From: Promethearchaeota archaeon
GTDB lineage: Archaea > Asgardarchaeota > Lokiarchaeia > Sigyniarchaeales > SOKP01
Length of the DNA stretch: 64,000 nt
Assembly: GCA_019057795.1 (NCBI GenBank)
Contig: JAHLWS010000021.1
Location: forward strand, 32,001-96,000
Direction: 5' to 3'
Every line of letters starts with the position of its first letter. Position 1 is the stretch's first letter. The position numbers and the translations under genes are program-made. Positions 9,740-40,513 of the stretch are shown in pieces. A model generated the notes under the pieces. That model worked only from the letters and a program-made list of their open reading frames with translations. It was not told where the DNA came from and searched no databases.

Positions 9740-11167
9740 TTGTTCGTTAAAAATTTATCGCAATTATCTCCTAAAAGCTTAGACAAACTTACGTTAGAGT
9801 TAAGAAAAGTAGGACTTGAAGCTTTGGAAATTGCGATTAAATCAGTTGAGCCGAGCAATCTAATCCAGAATAATGTTAAAGTTTTTGATGGTAAATTAAA
9901 TATTCAAAAGGATAAATTCGATCTCAATAAATATAACAATATTTTTATAATTGGAGGTGGAAAAGCTTCTGCTCAAATGAGTTTAGCACTCGAAAAAATT
10001 TTGAAAAAACAACCTAAGATAAAATACGAAGGATTTATCAACATTCCAGAAGGTCAAAAAATAAGAGACTACAGTCCTTCGAGCAAAATAAGGATGAATC
10101 GTGCTTCCCATCCTATTCCAAACGAAAAGGGTTTAACTGGCACGAAGGAAATGGTGAAAATTGTTGAAAATGCCACAAAAAACGATTTAATTATTTGCGT
10201 AATTTCAGGTGGAGGTTCCGCCTTATTGCCTTTGCCTAAACAAGGTATAACTCTCGAGGATTTACAAAAAGTCAATTCGTTATTATTAGCCTCGGGAGCG
10301 TCAATTCACGAAATAAATATTATCCGAAAACATCTATCGGACTTTAAAGGCGGAAATTTAGCAAAAAAAGTACATAATACTAGTAAAGCAACTTTAATAA
10401 CGCTAATTATCTCGGATGTAGTAGGAAATAATTTGGATTCTATTGCCTCTGGGCCTACAGTTCCAGACTTGACAACTTTTAACCAAGCTTATGATGTGTT
10501 AAAAAAGTATAATTTAAGCGATAAGATTCCTTCTTCGATAAAAAAAATAATTGAAAAAGGTTTGAGCGACCTGAGATTAGAAAACCCTAAGGAACACGAT
10601 GTTTGCTTTAATAATATATTCAATTATTTAATCGGAAGCGTCGATTTAGCTGTTGAAGAAGTATCAGCAAATCTGAAAGCTTTTAATTATATCATCGACT
10701 ATTTTACAAATGAAATTGTAGGTGAGGCTGTAGATTTTGGAAAGGATTTACACGAATTAATTTCAAAAAAATTAAAACCATATACCAAAAAACCTGGTAA
10801 ACATAAACTAGCTCTAATTGGCACCGGTGAATTGACAGTTACGATAAAAGGAAAAGGAGTTGGTGGAAGAAACCAAGAAATGTTATTGAGTTTTCTTGAC
10901 AATGTAAAAAATAAGGAAATTGATTACAATTTCTTAATTATCGGAGCCAATTTAGATGGGATTGAGGGGAATAGTAAGGCAATGGGAGCACTTATCGATA
11001 ATGTTTCACTTAATCAAATAAATAACGAAAAAATTAAGACTAAGAGCTATTTAGAAAACAACGACTCCAATAGTTTTTTTAAGCTATTAAAAAGCGAGAT
11101 AATTACAGGCCCTACCGGTATCAATGTTAACGATTTACTTCTTATTTTGATAGAACTTTATGTTTAA
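9740..11167 (+). CDS. glycerate 2-kinase (MOFRL family)
   Basis: GGGKAS, SHPIP, ISGGGSALL, RKHLS..KGG, SDVVG, GGRNQE, TGPTGINVND. Confidence 0.93.
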   Translation: MFVKNLSQLSPKSLDKLTLELRKVGLEALEIAIKSVEPSNLIQNNVKVFDGKLNIQKDKFDLNKYNNIFIIGGGKASAQMSLALEKILKKQPKIKYEGFINIPEGQKIRDYSPSSKIRMNRASHPIPNEKGLTGTKEMVKIVENATKNDLIICVISGGGSALLPLPKQGITLEDLQKVNSLLLASGASIHEINIIRKHLSDFKGGNLAKKVHNTSKATLITLIISDVVGNNLDSIASGPTVPDLTTFNQAYDVLKKYNLSDKIPSSIKKIIEKGLSDLRLENPKEHDVCFNNIFNYLIGSVDLAVEEVSANLKAFNYIIDYFTNEIVGEAVDFGKDLHELISKKLKPYTKKPGKHKLALIGTGELTVTIKGKGVGGRNQEMLLSFLDNVKNKEIDYNFLIIGANLDGIEGNSKAMGALIDNVSLNQINNEKIKTKSYLENNDSNSFFKLLKSEIITGPTGINVNDLLLILIELYV

Positions 11168-11242
11168 CGTTTCGTTTAATATGGTTGCTTCTGGACCTAC
11201 GATGATTCCCTTCTCTACTTTCTTAATTTCATATTTCTCCAA
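11135..11242 (-). pseudogene. 35-codon remnant ORF MEKYEIKKVEKGIIVGPEATILNETLNIKFYQNKK, possibly an internally deleted class I aaRS (ileS-like)
   Basis: TTG start after GGAG. The N-terminus resembles the Y..K.VE..I start of IleRS/ValRS/LeuRS (compare YKPQEIEKKW in this window's leuS). Lies downstream of an Ile-rich uORF. Identity is inference. Confidence 0.35.
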
Positions 11243-11412
11243 AGTTCTCCAAACCTATTGGGGTAAATACTCCGGCAAGAACTCAAAAAGCTCCAGCCCA
11301 GATCGCTCGAAAAGAAAGCGGTTCTAAAGCGGTGCTATCCTCCGTAAAAAAAGTTAAGCGAGTTAAACAGGAAGGTTCGGGTTCGATACCACCAATAGAA
11401 AACTTTCGAGAG
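11237..11412 (-). ncRNA. structured leader RNA (long nested stem)
   Basis: GC-enriched. Minus-strand helices AAAGTT/AACTTT, CTATTGG/CCAATAG, GGTA/TACC, TTCC/GGAG, AACTC/GAGTT, GCTT/GAGC, CGCTT/GAGCG; G-U pairs favour the minus strand. Confidence 0.55.
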
Positions 11413-11484
11413 TTTAAGCTGTGGACTTTAAAAAAATTATTCTATGGAATAAGTACAAGTAAGAAAAAGCGTAAAAATTGTGGG

Positions 11485-11523
11485 TTATATGATGGAAATG
11501 CTTATAATTGCTTCCATGTGCAT
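11485..11523 (-). CDS. candidate Ile-rich leader peptide MHMEAIISISII
   Basis: 5 Ile codons (ATT, ATA, ATT, ATC, ATA) in the last 7; TATA-like TTAATAAA ~26 nt upstream; U-tracts follow. Confidence 0.45.
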   Translation of the reverse strand: MHMEAIISISII

Positions 11524-11587
11524 GATATTTATATAATAAAATTATTACTTTATTAATAGAAGTATTAAATTATAATCCTTTAATTTC

Positions 11588-36334: not shown

Positions 36335-37168
36335 TTAATCAACCCAAAAATCTTTTGCCAATCGTCTTCTTGTTTGCCACAGACCACCCTTTTCAGTGAA
36401 TCCAAGTACACCTTTACCTTGATCAGCGTCTTTTATTTTCCACATCCCGCTAAAAGCCCCAGTTAAAGCGCCGGATAAAACTTCAAAGCCTTGGGCGGTA
36501 TATAAGTCACACTCTACTCCGCGATTAATAATAAATTTTAGTTGACGCATACCTTGCTGGTTTTTGGATTTAAGCACATCCAACAACAGTTCTACTTCGG
36601 TATCAAGTTGGTCGTTGGGCACAACCCGGTTCCATAGGTTCCATTCTACTGCTTTTTCTCCAGAGTGGAGCGCGCCGATAAGATTAATCTCTTTAGCTCT
36701 CCGTCGACCTATAAGTCGAGATAATCGCGTAGTACCGCCCCATCCGGGAGTTATTCCGACGTCTACTTCGGGCATGCCCCACTTCGAGCGCTCAGTGGCA
36801 ATTACAAAATCACACACCATCGTAATTTCCAAACCGCCACCTACTGCATAACCGTCTACTGCTGCAATTGTGATTTTATCGAGTTCCTCGATTTGATTCG
36901 CCATATTTTGATAGTATCGACATCTTCGAGTTATATCGTTAGCGTTTCCCCATTTAATCATTTCTTTAATATCATCGCCCACGCAGAAGTTATCCCCCGC
37001 GCCCTTGATAACTAAGAATTTGAGTTTTGTAGACTGCCTTACGATTTCTATAGCGGCAACTATCTCTTCAGAAAGTTTCATGCTTAACGCGTTCATGACA
37101 TCAGGTCGATTGAGCGTTATCCAAGCCACTTGGTCCGTCTCTTTATATATTAAATTTTCGAATTTCAT
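36335..37168 (-). CDS. enoyl-CoA hydratase/isomerase
   Basis: ITLNRP..NAL, FCVGDDI, AVGGGLE, PE..GITPGWGGT. Confidence 0.92.
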   Translation of the reverse strand: MKFENLIYKETDQVAWITLNRPDVMNALSMKLSEEIVAAIEIVRQSTKLKFLVIKGAGDNFCVGDDIKEMIKWGNANDITRRCRYYQNMANQIEELDKITIAAVDGYAVGGGLEITMVCDFVIATERSKWGMPEVDVGITPGWGGTTRLSRLIGRRRAKEINLIGALHSGEKAVEWNLWNRVVPNDQLDTEVELLLDVLKSKNQQGMRQLKFIINRGVECDLYTAQGFEVLSGALTGAFSGMWKIKDADQGKGVLGFTEKGGLWQTRRRLAKDFWVD

Positions 37169-37350
37169 AATTTATTTTTGATTAAGTTTTATATAAATGT
37201 ATAGAACATTTTTATCATTAATTATTTTTTAAAGGTTATTGGAAGAGTTGTACGCCATACGGCTAGTTATTTTGTGGTTAGGTCATTTATGATTATTTAG
37301 TTATATTAAATTTATATTTTTTTCAATTTGAGATTAAATATGAGATAAAA

Positions 37351-37358
37351 TTTATAAA
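37351..37358 (+). promoter_or_regulatory. TATA box for the leader-leuS transcript
   Basis: TTTATAAA preceded by purine-rich GATAAAA (BRE-like), ending 27 nt before the uORF ATG. Confidence 0.55.
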
Positions 37359-37384
37359 ATACAATTACTATATTTTCTATAATA

Positions 37385-37471
37385 ATGATCTCTAATAATA
37401 TTGCTTCAAGAAAATCAATACGAGCTTTTGTACTTCTAGGATATTTGCTTTTAGCATTATTATTATTGTGA
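37385..37471 (+). CDS. Leu-rich leader peptide MISNNIASRKSIRAFVLLGYLLLALLLL upstream of leuS
   Basis: 9 Leu codons (CTT CTA TTG CTT TTA TTA TTA TTA TTG) in the last 12 codons and none earlier; 153 nt before the leuS ATG. Confidence 0.75.
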   Translation: MISNNIASRKSIRAFVLLGYLLLALLLL

Positions 37472-37527
37472 GTGAAACAAATCCACTCGATCTTTTTCTT
37501 TTTAAATTTCCACGGATTTGTTCTCTC
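37469..37527 (+). promoter_or_regulatory. candidate attenuator: alternative hairpins plus U-tract
   Basis: GAGTG/CACTC hairpin (37470-37488) followed by TCTTTTTCTTTTT, versus AACAAATCC/GGATTTGTT (37476-37484/37514-37522), which loops out the U-tract. Confidence 0.6.
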
Positions 37528-37624
37528 TGTGTATACAATTTAATTGAAGGAGGTCATAGGTGGGTTGGTTGCTCTATGGAGATAAAAAGTTAACTTGAAA
37601 ATAAAAAAAATAGTGGTAAAATTC

Positions 37625-40513
37625 ATGTATAAACCCCAAGAAATCGAAAAGAAATGGCAGGAAAAATGGGAACAAGCTAAAATTTTCGAAGCAAACCCAA
37701 ATCCGGAGAAAAAGAAGCTTTTTATAACGTCTCCTTACCCATATGCTTCTGGACCTTCACATATAGGCCATGGAAGGAGTTTTGTAAATGGAGATATATT
37801 TGCCAGGTATTATCGAGCTAAAGGCTATAATGTACTATATCCTATGGCTTTTCACATTACAGGTACTCCTGTTTTAGCAATCTCTTCTTCTATTGAAAGA
37901 AAGGATAAAGAGACTATAGAAAGAATGAAGGACTATGTATCTTTACACACTAAAAGTCAAGAAAAGGTAGAGAAGATTGTAGAAAGTTTTGTAGATCCTT
38001 GGAATATTGTTAACTATTTTTCTAAAACAATAAAAACCGATTTTAAATCGATAGGAATGAGTTTAGATTGGAGAAGGGAATTTACTACGGGTGACAAGTT
38101 ATATAACAAGCTGATTGAGTGGCAATATTACAAATTATCTGAGTTAGGGTACTTGGAAAAAGGCGAATATCCCATTCTTTATTGTATGCGATGCGAAAAT
38201 GCTGTAGGAGAGGACGATATAGCAAGTGGAGACGAACTTGATTTGAACATAAACGAATACATTTGTATAAAATTTCCGTTTGAAGACGCTTATTTAGTAC
38301 CTTCTACCTTAAGACCAGAAACGATATATGGTGCGACTAATCTATGGATAAACCCAAATGGGGCGTATGTTTACGCTAAAGTCAACGGAGAGAAGTGGAT
38401 TATTTCTGAAGATGCAACCAATCTTTTAAAAAATCAAAATAAAAACGTTACCATACTTGAAAAAATTAGGGGAATGGAACTTATTGGTAAAAAGGTTAAG
38501 GATGTAGATGGAATCAGAGAGCTTTTAATATTACCAGGATATTTCGTAGATACTTCAGTAGCTACGGGCGTGGTCTACTCTGTGCCAGCTCATGCTCCCT
38601 ATGACTACATCGCTTTAATTGATTTACAGAATAATCGTGAAATAATTAAAAAATTTAAATTAAACAAAGAAGAAATTAGTCAAATTAAGCCAATTCAAAT
38701 TATAGATTTAGAAGGCTTCGATGAGATTCCAGCAAAAATTTACTGTGAAAAATTTGGAGTTCAATCTCAAGAAGATGTAGAGAAATTAGATAACGCAACT
38801 TCCGAAAATTATAAAACTGAATATTATAACGGCACTTTAAATGAGAAATGTGGAAAATACGAAGGAAAACAGGTAAAAGAAGCAGTAGAGAATGTTATTG
38901 TGGATTTAATTGAGAGAAATAAGGCAGACAAATTCTACCTTCCAATTACTAATAATCTTAAATGCAAGTGTGGAGAGCAGGTGATCGTCTCAATTATGAA
39001 AGATCAATGGTTTCTAAATTTCAATGCGGGAAATTGGAAGCAGAAAGCATTTGAGTGCCTAAATAAAATGGAAATTGCCCCTAAAAAATATAGAATGAAT
39101 TTTGAACATATATTTAATTGGTTGGAAAAGAGACCTTGTGCTAGAAAAAGAGGTTTAGGCACGAAACTTCCATTTGATAAAGATTGGATTATTGAATCTT
39201 TAAGCGACTCTACAATATACATGAGCTTCTATACTATATTACATTTAATAAAAAAGAATAACATCAAACCAGAACAGCTTACACCAGAATTTTTTGACTA
39301 TGTTTACTTAGATAAAGGTGATATCGAAGACTTGTCAAAAAAGACTAGCGTTGATTCGAAAGTATTGAAGCAAATGCAAGACGAATTTTCCTATTGGTAT
39401 CCCGTTGATCATCGACACACAGCTATAATGCACATATCTAATCATTTGAGTTTCTATATTTTCCATCATGTGGCTATATTTCCAGAAAAACAGTGGCCAA
39501 GAATTATTTCCCTTATTGAACCCGTAATTATAGAAGGTCAGAAAATGGGTAAGTCAAAAGGAAACGTTATTTCATTGGCAGATATTCAAATGAATTACTC
39601 CGCGGATTTATTTAGGTTTTATATATCCCATAGCGCAGATTTTGGAATAATCGTAGATTGGAGGGAAAAACAGATACATACCGTAAAAAATCATATTAAT
39701 CGATTTTACTCCTTTATCACAAAAAATATCAACAGAATAAGTGATTTTGACGGTAAAATTGAAGATTTAAGCACAAAATATTCAAAAATTATCTTATCAA
39801 AGTGTATAAGAAAAATAATCGAAGCAGAAAGTGGATTGAAGGAACTCAATTTAAGGAAATACCTTCAATTATCATTTTACGAGGTTTTTAACTTATTACA
39901 AGAACTTAATAAGTACTCTAAAGATGAAAACGATCAAACGGAAGTATATAAGATTGTATTTCCTGAATGGATCCAAATTCTTTCTTTAGCCATGCCTCAC
40001 TTATGTGAAGAACTATGGGAATTAATGGGAAATACAGAGTTTTTATCAAAGACAGTTTGGGGTGATTTTAGCAGAAAGCATATAAATAACGAGCTCGAAA
40101 AAGAGTTTGAATATATTTCTAGCATTGTGGACGATATTTTAAACATAAAAAAAATAGTGAAATCTGGCGATTCAAGTAATATTTATTTATACACGGCTCC
40201 TAAATGGAAATATGAGGTTTATGATGTAATTATTTTAAAGAAGGGAAATTTCAATGACATTATTGATGAGTGTAAGCTCGATAGTGGCTTAATGAAAAAC
40301 AAAAATTTGATTTCATTTGTTAAAAACCAAATAAAAGATAGAATCTGGGAAAAAGAATTAATAAGATTAGATGAGAAGGAGTTAATAAAAGAATATAAAG
40401 GCTACATTGAAAAAAGGATAAACAATGTAATAATTATTAATTCAGAGTACGATCCGAAAAACCGCTTAATAAAAACTATTCCATATAGGCCAGCAATTTA
40501 TGTAGAAATCTAA
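37625..40513 (+). CDS. leuS: leucyl-tRNA synthetase (archaeal type); likely start ATG 37625 rather than TTG 37595
   Basis: PYPY.SG..HIGH, TLRPET, SVPAHAPYD, ESLSDSTIY, KMGKS. Confidence 0.96.
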   Translation: MYKPQEIEKKWQEKWEQAKIFEANPNPEKKKLFITSPYPYASGPSHIGHGRSFVNGDIFARYYRAKGYNVLYPMAFHITGTPVLAISSSIERKDKETIERMKDYVSLHTKSQEKVEKIVESFVDPWNIVNYFSKTIKTDFKSIGMSLDWRREFTTGDKLYNKLIEWQYYKLSELGYLEKGEYPILYCMRCENAVGEDDIASGDELDLNINEYICIKFPFEDAYLVPSTLRPETIYGATNLWINPNGAYVYAKVNGEKWIISEDATNLLKNQNKNVTILEKIRGMELIGKKVKDVDGIRELLILPGYFVDTSVATGVVYSVPAHAPYDYIALIDLQNNREIIKKFKLNKEEISQIKPIQIIDLEGFDEIPAKIYCEKFGVQSQEDVEKLDNATSENYKTEYYNGTLNEKCGKYEGKQVKEAVENVIVDLIERNKADKFYLPITNNLKCKCGEQVIVSIMKDQWFLNFNAGNWKQKAFECLNKMEIAPKKYRMNFEHIFNWLEKRPCARKRGLGTKLPFDKDWIIESLSDSTIYMSFYTILHLIKKNNIKPEQLTPEFFDYVYLDKGDIEDLSKKTSVDSKVLKQMQDEFSYWYPVDHRHTAIMHISNHLSFYIFHHVAIFPEKQWPRIISLIEPVIIEGQKMGKSKGNVISLADIQMNYSADLFRFYISHSADFGIIVDWREKQIHTVKNHINRFYSFITKNINRISDFDGKIEDLSTKYSKIILSKCIRKIIEAESGLKELNLRKYLQLSFYEVFNLLQELNKYSKDENDQTEVYKIVFPEWIQILSLAMPHLCEELWELMGNTEFLSKTVWGDFSRKHINNELEKEFEYISSIVDDILNIKKIVKSGDSSNIYLYTAPKWKYEVYDVIILKKGNFNDIIDECKLDSGLMKNKNLISFVKNQIKDRIWEKELIRLDEKELIKEYKGYIEKRINNVIIINSEYDPKNRLIKTIPYRPAIYVEI

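Follow-up and report, generated by a model that had tools for sequence, protein, structure and literature searches.

How an archaeon might adjust the synthesis of its leucyl-tRNA synthetase (LeuRS) to the supply of leucine is the question raised by a locus of Promethearchaeota archaeon (assembly GCA_019057795.1), in which the leuS gene is preceded by a short upstream open reading frame (uORF) that ends in a run of leucine codons. The locus lies on the plus strand of the window, i.e. the whole stretch of 64,000 nucleotides (nt) that was analysed (contig JAHLWS010000021.1, positions 32,001 to 96,000; coordinates below are those of the window unless another contig is named). An initial annotation, made from the letters alone, had read it as a leaderless leader peptide rich in Leu codons, with an attenuator, in front of leuS in an Asgard archaeon. 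The reading as a leader peptide was supported, related contigs being labelled Promethearchaeia or Promethearchaeota, and the TATA box, the uORF, the leucine counts, both hairpins, the U-tract and the spacing had all been given correctly to the base. From comparison with its relatives, the leader is probably a cis-acting, ribosome-mediated gauge of leucine placed before leuS.

A leucine-ending leader frame upstream of leuS

The gap of 456 nt between the end of a minus-strand gene (37168) and leuS houses the promoter, the uORF and the arms of the RNA structures described below. The TATA box precedes the ATG of the uORF (37385) by 27 nt, and from this spacing and the usual geometry of archaeal promoters the 5' untranslated region of the uORF would be about 0-6 nt long. 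The stop codon of the uORF, TGA, occupies positions 37469-71 and is followed by 153 nt and then by the leuS ATG at 37625; in this spacer a U-tract, TCTTTTTCTTTTT (37491-37503), lies downstream of a short hairpin, and the core of a longer stem is formed by AACAAATCC (37476-84) with GGATTTGTT (37514-22). The features of the locus are as follows.

37351-37358, plus strand: TATA box TTTATAAA, read in the sequence, with an A-rich stretch resembling a B recognition element before it
37379-37384, plus strand: putative transcription start region of a near-leaderless mRNA, from the edge of an RNA contig (a weak hint)
37385-37471, plus strand: leader uORF of 28 codons and TGA, MISNNIASRKSIRAFVLLGYLLLALLLL*, read in the sequence
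37394-37405, plus strand: 5' arm of helix H0, codons 4-7, AAUAAUAUUGCU, pairing with 37453-37464
37433-37468, plus strand: control-codon region with 9 Leu in the last 12 codons, including the 3' arm of H0 (37453-37464)
37470-37485, plus strand: arm A, GAGUGAAACAAAUCCA, beginning within the stop codon; 5' partner common to H1, H2 and the rod
37484-37488, plus strand: 3' arm of H1, CACUC, partner of GAGUG at 37470-74
37489-37509, plus strand: segment B, the U-tracts, GAUCUUUUUCUUUUUAAAUUU
37514-37527, plus strand: arm A', GGAUUUGUUCUCUC, the 3' arm of H2, which encloses segment B
37537-37555, plus strand: segment B', AAUUUAAUUGAAGGAGGUC, rich in purines, pairing with the U-tracts in the rod
37559-37574, plus strand: segment A'', GGUGGGUUGGUUGCUC, distal partner of arm A, closing the rod (37470-37574)
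37613-37627, plus strand: weak Shine-Dalgarno-like GUGGU and the leuS ATG (37625), after an A-rich spacer
37625-40513, plus strand: leuS, archaeal-type leucyl-tRNA synthetase of 962 aa (TIGR00395 leuS_arch, 953 bits; PRK12300, 1104 bits)

Codons 1-16 of the uORF contain no Leu codon, and codons 17-28 contain nine, drawn from CTT, CTA, TTG and TTA. In a scan of the 4.95-Mb genome (31% G+C) for ATG-started open reading frames (ORFs) of 10-50 aa, this uORF was the most leucine-enriched of the 3403 that lie upstream of long ORFs (binomial p 8.6e-7), and it ranked 4 when enrichment in all amino acids was counted. The other top uORFs rich in one amino acid were checked and set aside, as they precede genes for a helix-turn-helix (HTH) protein, a Ras-like GTPase, a CCG-domain protein, a DeoC aldolase, TruD and others, and no cognate gene. 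The top match of the scan was a Trp-rich uORF outside the window, MWWWTRPWMRTWSRWKPSK... (5 Trp in 12 residues; G000:C74:80590-80689, locus L106), which stands 271 nt before a gene whose 447-aa product has an HTH domain of the ArsR/MarR type.

Examination of the regions upstream of leuS orthologues revealed the pattern that the initial annotation had predicted, namely Leu clusters that are kept within an otherwise variable peptide, together with covarying RNA pairings. The uORF was found at every orthologous locus that has upstream sequence. Within the genus, all leuS orthologues (LeuRS 63-76% identical) carry a uORF of 27-32 codons, 212-249 nt before leuS, with a Leu run at its end. Altogether, the loci fetched yielded 43 distinct uORF peptides before LeuRS genes, which comprise 24-32 codons in nine lengths, all in frame, and in 43/43 of these leaders the end of the uORF keeps a fixed position with respect to arm A, which its stop codon abuts. 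The last 12 residues of the 43 peptides consist of 59% Leu, 11% Val, 7% Ala, 6% Asp and 0.8% Ile, with Gln and Lys also occurring; Leu amounts to 10% in the rest of these peptides, and the proteome contains 10.0% Leu and 10.2% Ile. At least three Leu fall within the final four codons in 38/43 leaders. The promoter is conserved as well: AAAATTTATAAAA, from the TATA region, is kept in the alignment of 21 orthologous upstream regions, and in 28/43 LeuRS leaders the ATG follows the first T of the TATA box at a distance of 28-29 or 33-34 nt.

UUA accounts for 71% of the Leu codons in the tails vs 48% in the genes of the genome. As a (UUA)n run encodes Ile or Tyr when read off frame, the leucine reading belongs to the frame of the conserved AUG and not to the bases as such, which argues for translation. 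In a strain of ~97% identity recovered from public runs, the uORF differs by S11L, R13G, Y20D and A24G and retains all of its Leu residues. These comparisons show that it is the identity of leucine that is conserved, the rest of the peptide being free to vary, and that hydrophobicity is not the trait that is kept. Two observations named beforehand as speaking against a leucine sensor were an absence of Leu-rich uORFs from the orthologues and a conservation of hydrophobicity rather than of Leu; such uORFs do precede the orthologues, and the tails are poor in Ile and contain Asp and Gln. Two public records carrying the same leader (L003 and L007; LeuRS 63-74% identical) are titled 'Candidatus Nanopelagicaceae bacterium' and 'Candidatus Thorarchaeota archaeon', respectively, labels or bins that look wrong.

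Folds of the leader RNA and transcripts across it

H2, the pairing of arm A with arm A', was the only helix predicted by RNAalifold on the 21 upstream regions, and 6/11 of its pairs were compensatory. A covariance model, R1, was built over the stretch from the stop codon to segment B', and on 76 leaders aligned with it H2 was 92% paired, 10/11 pairs changed on both sides and 0/500 shuffles reached the observed values, in an alignment that was fitted to the structure of R1 and so leans towards the pairs of the model. Once arm A was masked, the consensus fold became B:B', in which the U-tracts and UUUUAAAUUUU pair with AAAAUUUAA..GAAAGAGAU. This helix was 85% paired and covaried modestly, one instance being the CG/CG double change in L007. 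Read by eye, most leaders keep a U5 run in segment B and several keep two or three runs of U4 or more; where a U-run of segment B is broken, the complementarity to B' is retained (e.g. in L007).

The rod arises when arm A pairs with A'' instead. The minimum-energy fold places at least 6 bases of arm A on A'' in 46/56 leaders, and some pairing of this kind is present in all but 7. When the first 68 nt were folded alone H2 was obtained, at -10 to -21 kcal/mol, and the full spacer folded at -21 to -43 kcal/mol. Shuffling of A'' alone weakened the fold in these 56 leaders (median z -2.8, z < -2 in 68%), as did shuffling of B' alone (median z -2.5, z < -2 in 73%). Most leaders encode this more stable rod specifically. 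For the leader of the window by itself, the whole-leader fold energy compared with shuffles gave a z of -1.0 only, so that energy alone would not have flagged the element. H2 and the rod are predicted to be mutually exclusive folds that share arm A, and the geometry of the leader suggests that the choice between them depends on the ribosome.

Two further helices involve the end of the uORF. The hairpin H1, in which GAGTG (37470-74) pairs with CACTC (37484-88) over 5 bp, was 81% paired on the 21 sequences, with one pair changed from CG to UA in three of them, and it is missing, as read by eye, in several lineages of a sister genus. H0, formed by codons 4-7 and tail codons, was 78% paired on the 21 sequences, with 3/11 pairs changed on both sides; by eye, the codon-block pairs NNTA/AVLL, NTTT/VVVV and SYTA/AVLI vary together across the Leu, Val and Ile classes, and H0 appears to explain the conserved N-terminus MxSNNTA of the peptides. 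Of the two exclusive structures originally proposed, both hairpins are present and the longer one, H2, covaries; the shorter one, H1, is only moderately conserved, and the rod and H0 had been missed.

The region of the leuS Shine-Dalgarno-like sequence and AUG is unpaired and outside all conserved helices, and in the folds neither the Leu codons nor the rod masked the ribosome-binding site of leuS. Likewise, the rod followed by a U-run was rejected as a bacterial-type terminator, as U-runs follow GGUGGG in under half of the leaders listed and are the complement of the A-run of arm A; only the weak 5-bp H1 precedes the U-tracts, and no conserved U-run follows the rod. Searches with Rfam covariance models (Leu_leader, T-box and others) over 36900-37900, with E up to 10, gave just three matches, all to unrelated families and at chance level, and a tRNA gene scan of the window placed none at the leader.

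Three metatranscriptome runs of one study contain a near-identical strain, represented by contigs 37379-37488 and 37459-39228, which overlap by 30 nt, and 37468-38501. The contig that extends from inside the uORF (37459) to inside leuS (39228) indicates that RNA crossing the U-tracts into leuS exists, although contigs do not prove a single transcript. A promoter of leuS itself downstream of the U-tract had been named as the arrangement that would undo the proposed attenuation; the RNA-library contigs instead span the uORF interior, the U-tract and leuS. No RNA contig extends upstream of 37379 in the three runs, and run X7, of unrecorded library type and presumably DNA, does extend upstream. 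The left edge of the RNA contig of run X1 at 37379, 6 nt before the AUG, fits a transcription start as a weak hint, contigs being unable to prove an RNA end. A snap-back junction at 37379 in X1 was rejected as proof of a 5' end, a similar junction being found inside leuS in X6, and neither the contig depths (19 for the uORF unitig, 52 downstream) nor the absence of the uORF part from X2 were readable as expression levels.

Spread of the scaffold and its sister leaders

With E up to 0.001, R1 matched 93/135 family genomes. When E up to 0.01 was allowed and the host genome excluded, matches were obtained in 99/131 family genomes vs 0/19 genomes from the remaining three families of the order. The host genome carries one copy of the scaffold only, that of leuS, and in many relatives R1 matches at two or three places. 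Where the run is one of Leu, the gene behind it encodes the archaeal-type LeuRS or, in another genus, the unrelated bacterial-type LeuRS (TIGR00396). Other copies carry other runs. Ile/Val runs (IIIIIVVVIII, LIIIIVAVLIR) stand before the gene of a ~480-aa protein composed of ferredoxin, FrhB/FdhB-family and TrmB HTH domains; 9 distinct leaders of this FrhB-TrmB class were found, with tails of 42% Ile and 17% Val. Val runs (VVVVDVVVVLL, VVVVVVL, MLTNNNTKNTLSSVVVVDVVVVLL) stand before an Acd-EtfBA operon (acyl-CoA dehydrogenase and the beta and alpha subunits of electron transfer flavoprotein) or before a small ORF. Across genera the composition of the tail appears to track the downstream gene, which is a hallmark of leader-peptide sensors; of these pairings, only that of Leu with LeuRS explains itself.

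The FrhB-TrmB leaders of the relatives are situated at loci L147, L148, L150, L153-L157 and L159, where the gene is monocistronic; a close orthologue of FrhB-TrmB was not found in the host genome, the best match there being 36% identical. Scaffold copies with Val runs occur in relatives at L162/L179, L158, L184, L191 and L194. The small ORF behind Val leaders has 41-45 aa (44 aa in the case cited), reads MTVIRKQDIEFKP...AEFLIHDDIAW and is provided with a strong GGAGG Shine-Dalgarno sequence. A ~60-aa ORF containing ILDYYKDWDS follows the scaffold at L160, L164, L166 and L182-L201, where the leader peptides are conserved and read MSFSHNTMDYWCGFTLSVKPVxIRSIIKRE and MSFSHHNTTCTWVGYKKAFIIPLKLVL, each with an internal uORF hairpin.

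In the window itself, an Ile-rich uORF of 12 codons, MHMEAIISISII, lies on the minus strand in a region (11135-11556) with U-tracts and a structured stretch richer in G+C. As a leader of the same type this uORF (~11523) was rejected, as R1 did not match it even with filters off and no synthetase but a 35-codon ORF and a convergent gene come after it.

The host possesses a second LeuRS gene outside the window (G000:C73:17852-20647, locus L116), which encodes 931 aa with a TIGR00396 core (965 bits) and an archaeal-type C-terminal domain and which sits in a 120-nt divergent intergenic region without a leader. LeuRS of this second type was found in 35/41 relatives across the order, and archaeal-type LeuRS with the leader in 20/41, mostly of the window's own genus. 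The LeuA_dimer domain (PF08502) was not found in the host genome, which is rated 100% complete, and was matched in 14/14 control genomes. Perhaps the host does not make leucine, which would suit a gauge that acts on the synthetase and not on a biosynthetic operon.

Possible modes of action and comparison with known systems

The following working, in which an occupied arm A means that leuS is on, is proposed tentatively, its prospects of being right in detail falling somewhat short of even. The leuS mRNA would start a few bases before the AUG of the 28-codon leader frame, and the speed of the first ribosome over the Leu codons would be set by charged tRNA-Leu. The position of this ribosome would pick the fold of the next 105 nt, and the fold would set the yield of full-length leuS mRNA. 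With leucine plentiful, the ribosome would be gone and arm A free as A' emerges, so that H2 would form and topologically block B:B'; the U-tracts would then stay single-stranded in the loop, open to aCPSF1/FttA, and termination or cleavage would keep leuS off. With Leu-tRNA short, the ribosome would dwell on the terminal Leu run and cover arm A, H2 would not form and the U-tracts would pair with B'; upon departure of the ribosome, A:A'' would lock the rod, hide the U-tracts and permit read-through, turning leuS on. The sign of this response, with shortage leading to expression, would be the one expected for a synthetase gene, and the model gives a role to every conserved segment. Archaeal termination needs no hairpin and uses aCPSF1/FttA, and the host genome encodes a protein of this type. 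Adjacent U-tracts are an archaeal terminator signal and are bound by the KH domains of aCPSF1 (PMC8716108), and the U-tracts of the leader fit a hairpin-free archaeal terminator. A coupled ribosome is thought to exclude FttA, which is a hypothesis of the paper concerned (PMC11616081).

Taken as a whole, a ribosome-mediated leucine gauge acting through the choice of fold is the best explanation and a likely one, and several points weigh against it. Severe starvation would stall the ribosome at the first Leu codons, 12 to 8 before the stop, leaving arm A free as in the off state. H2 and the rod share arm A only, and the exclusion between H2 and B:B' is drawn on steric grounds from linkers of 5 nt and 3 nt. 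The covariation of the rod is modest, U-purine pairs being permissive, and the support for its distal part comes from energy and shuffling; within B', the A/T-rich stretch might also serve as a TATA box. Contigs cannot reveal the start or the end of a transcript, or an attenuated product. Among the sister leaders, the two scaffold classes with MSFSHNT... peptides have no enriched residue, no evident link joins Ile/Val to FrhB-TrmB or Val to Acd-EtfBA, and if Acd-EtfBA were catabolic a Val leader would favour the opposite sign.

The polarity favoured by the initial annotation is the reverse one, in which a ribosome at the stop codon masks arm A and causes termination and a stall further upstream allows H2 and read-through, H2 being the on state and the rod or an open form the off state. 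This follows the same logic as the classical trp and leu attenuators and relies on the best-supported helix; H1 and the U-tracts look like a bacterial terminator with some covariation, and the stall 8-12 codons before the stop under severe starvation, with arm A free, suits it. However, arm A' (37514-27) lies downstream of the U-tracts and is transcribed after them, so that H2 cannot stop intrinsic termination there, and a U-tract looped out in a 27-nt loop stays single-stranded and is not hidden. Moreover, the Leu run reaches the last codons in most leaders (38/43), so that a stalled ribosome covers arm A as a terminating one does and the two ribosome states are not distinct. Since this polarity also leaves the conserved B' and A'' without a role and leans on H1, a weak hairpin of 5 bp that several lineages lack, we consider it improbable.

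Leu-tRNA might also be sensed with an output after transcription, either because a stalled ribosome at the 5' end blocks 5'-to-3' decay, as in erm systems, or because ribosomes pass over the rod in a shunt-like manner and reinitiate at leuS. The near-leaderless mRNA, which would hold a stalled ribosome at its very 5' end, the position of the uORF stop exactly at the base of a ~105-nt rod and the location of the leuS ribosome-binding site outside the conserved helices, by which classical masking is not the mechanism, are in line with such an output, and RNA contig cover is firmer past the uORF stop than over the uORF, though this is not a measure of level. Neither version accounts for the U-tracts or for the strong conservation of A:A' as a fold competing with the rod, and in most loci a Shine-Dalgarno-like sequence of leuS itself stands 6-10 nt before its AUG; the shunt version would yield less LeuRS under starvation, and we know of no description of ribosome shunting in prokaryotes. 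An output of this kind is given a small chance. The least probable of the readings, and a very unlikely one, is that the frame encodes a small hydrophobic protein acting in trans or lies incidentally over an RNA-only regulator (a riboswitch, or a leader binding tRNA or protein). The peptides of all classes do combine a polar N-terminus and a hydrophobic C-terminal tail with a basic stretch between them, the N-terminus MxSNNTA is explicable by H0, two scaffold classes show no enriched residue and the leader is largely structured RNA. Against this stand the retention of Leu rather than of hydrophobicity in a genome where Ile is as frequent as Leu, with little Ile and with Asp, Gln and Lys inside the tails, the Y20D variant within the tail, the nine uORF lengths that are all in frame, the agreement of the tail with the downstream gene across genera and two unrelated LeuRS types, and the lack of any Rfam match; in addition, a 12-residue tail of a 28-residue peptide is still within the ribosome exit tunnel at termination.

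Ribosome-mediated attenuation is a textbook bacterial mechanism, and the leucine gauge favoured here resembles several of its forms. The E. coli leuL peptide has 28 aa, equal to the uORF described here, and leuL and ilvL/ivbL likewise use runs of Leu or Leu/Ile/Val as control codons, just as the sister leaders place different amino acids before different genes; those leaders serve biosynthetic operons, whereas here a synthetase gene follows, the Leu run abuts the stop and Rfam Leu_leader does not match. As in T-box leaders of Firmicutes, a synthetase would be controlled by the supply of charged cognate tRNA through a switch of the leader from one RNA fold to another; T-boxes bind uncharged tRNA without translation, in contrast to the 5-9 conserved in-frame Leu codons behind an AUG in the present leaders, which gave no T-box match. 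Closer in layout are pheM-pheST of E. coli and the leuS attenuators that have been predicted in Streptomyces (Seliverstov et al. 2005, PMC1262725), which share a cognate-codon uORF before a synthetase gene, exclusive helices starting from the uORF stop and U-tracts between uORF and gene. The leader of the window differs from both in its archaeal host and promoter, in its leaderless uORF and in the absence of sequence or Rfam similarity, and its U-tracts do not follow a terminator hairpin but sit in the loop of the hairpin that forms early, while the alternative fold pairs them. The mycobacterial leaderless polycysteine small ORFs, the 'Cys ribulon' (Canestrari et al., 10.1101/834739), are similar in design: a leaderless small ORF is the first cistron, a tract of one amino acid is the sensor, an mRNA structure is blocked by stalled ribosomes and several such loci form a ribosome-directed regulon. 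Their host is bacterial, and in the present leader the leuS ribosome-binding site is unpaired and outside the conserved helices.

The widest reading is that of modular amino-acid gauges in one Asgard (Lokiarchaeales-type) family, in which a single leaderless uORF-switch scaffold with an exchangeable Leu, Ile/Val or Val run would tune different genes by hiding or showing U-tracts to the eukaryote-like nuclease aCPSF1/FttA; it is possible and, as it stands, rather unlikely. A literature search of incomplete coverage, and hence no proof of absence, gave no report of ribosome-mediated attenuation in archaea. If the modular reading is true, the leader would be the first known case of leader-peptide attenuation in archaea and also, for this domain, of a regulated factor-dependent termination that translation controls. 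Asgard archaea are the closest prokaryotic relatives of eukaryotes, and the presence of the leader in ~100 genomes would mean that they use transcription-translation coupling as a sensor. At ~240 nt, the element would be a compact test object for the coupling of ribosome and RNA polymerase, for the regulation of termination by aCPSF1/FttA and for the use of leaderless uORFs. It would also mark which of the two LeuRS genes is regulated, and its Ile/Val and Val versions could give an amino-acid context to genes of unknown role.

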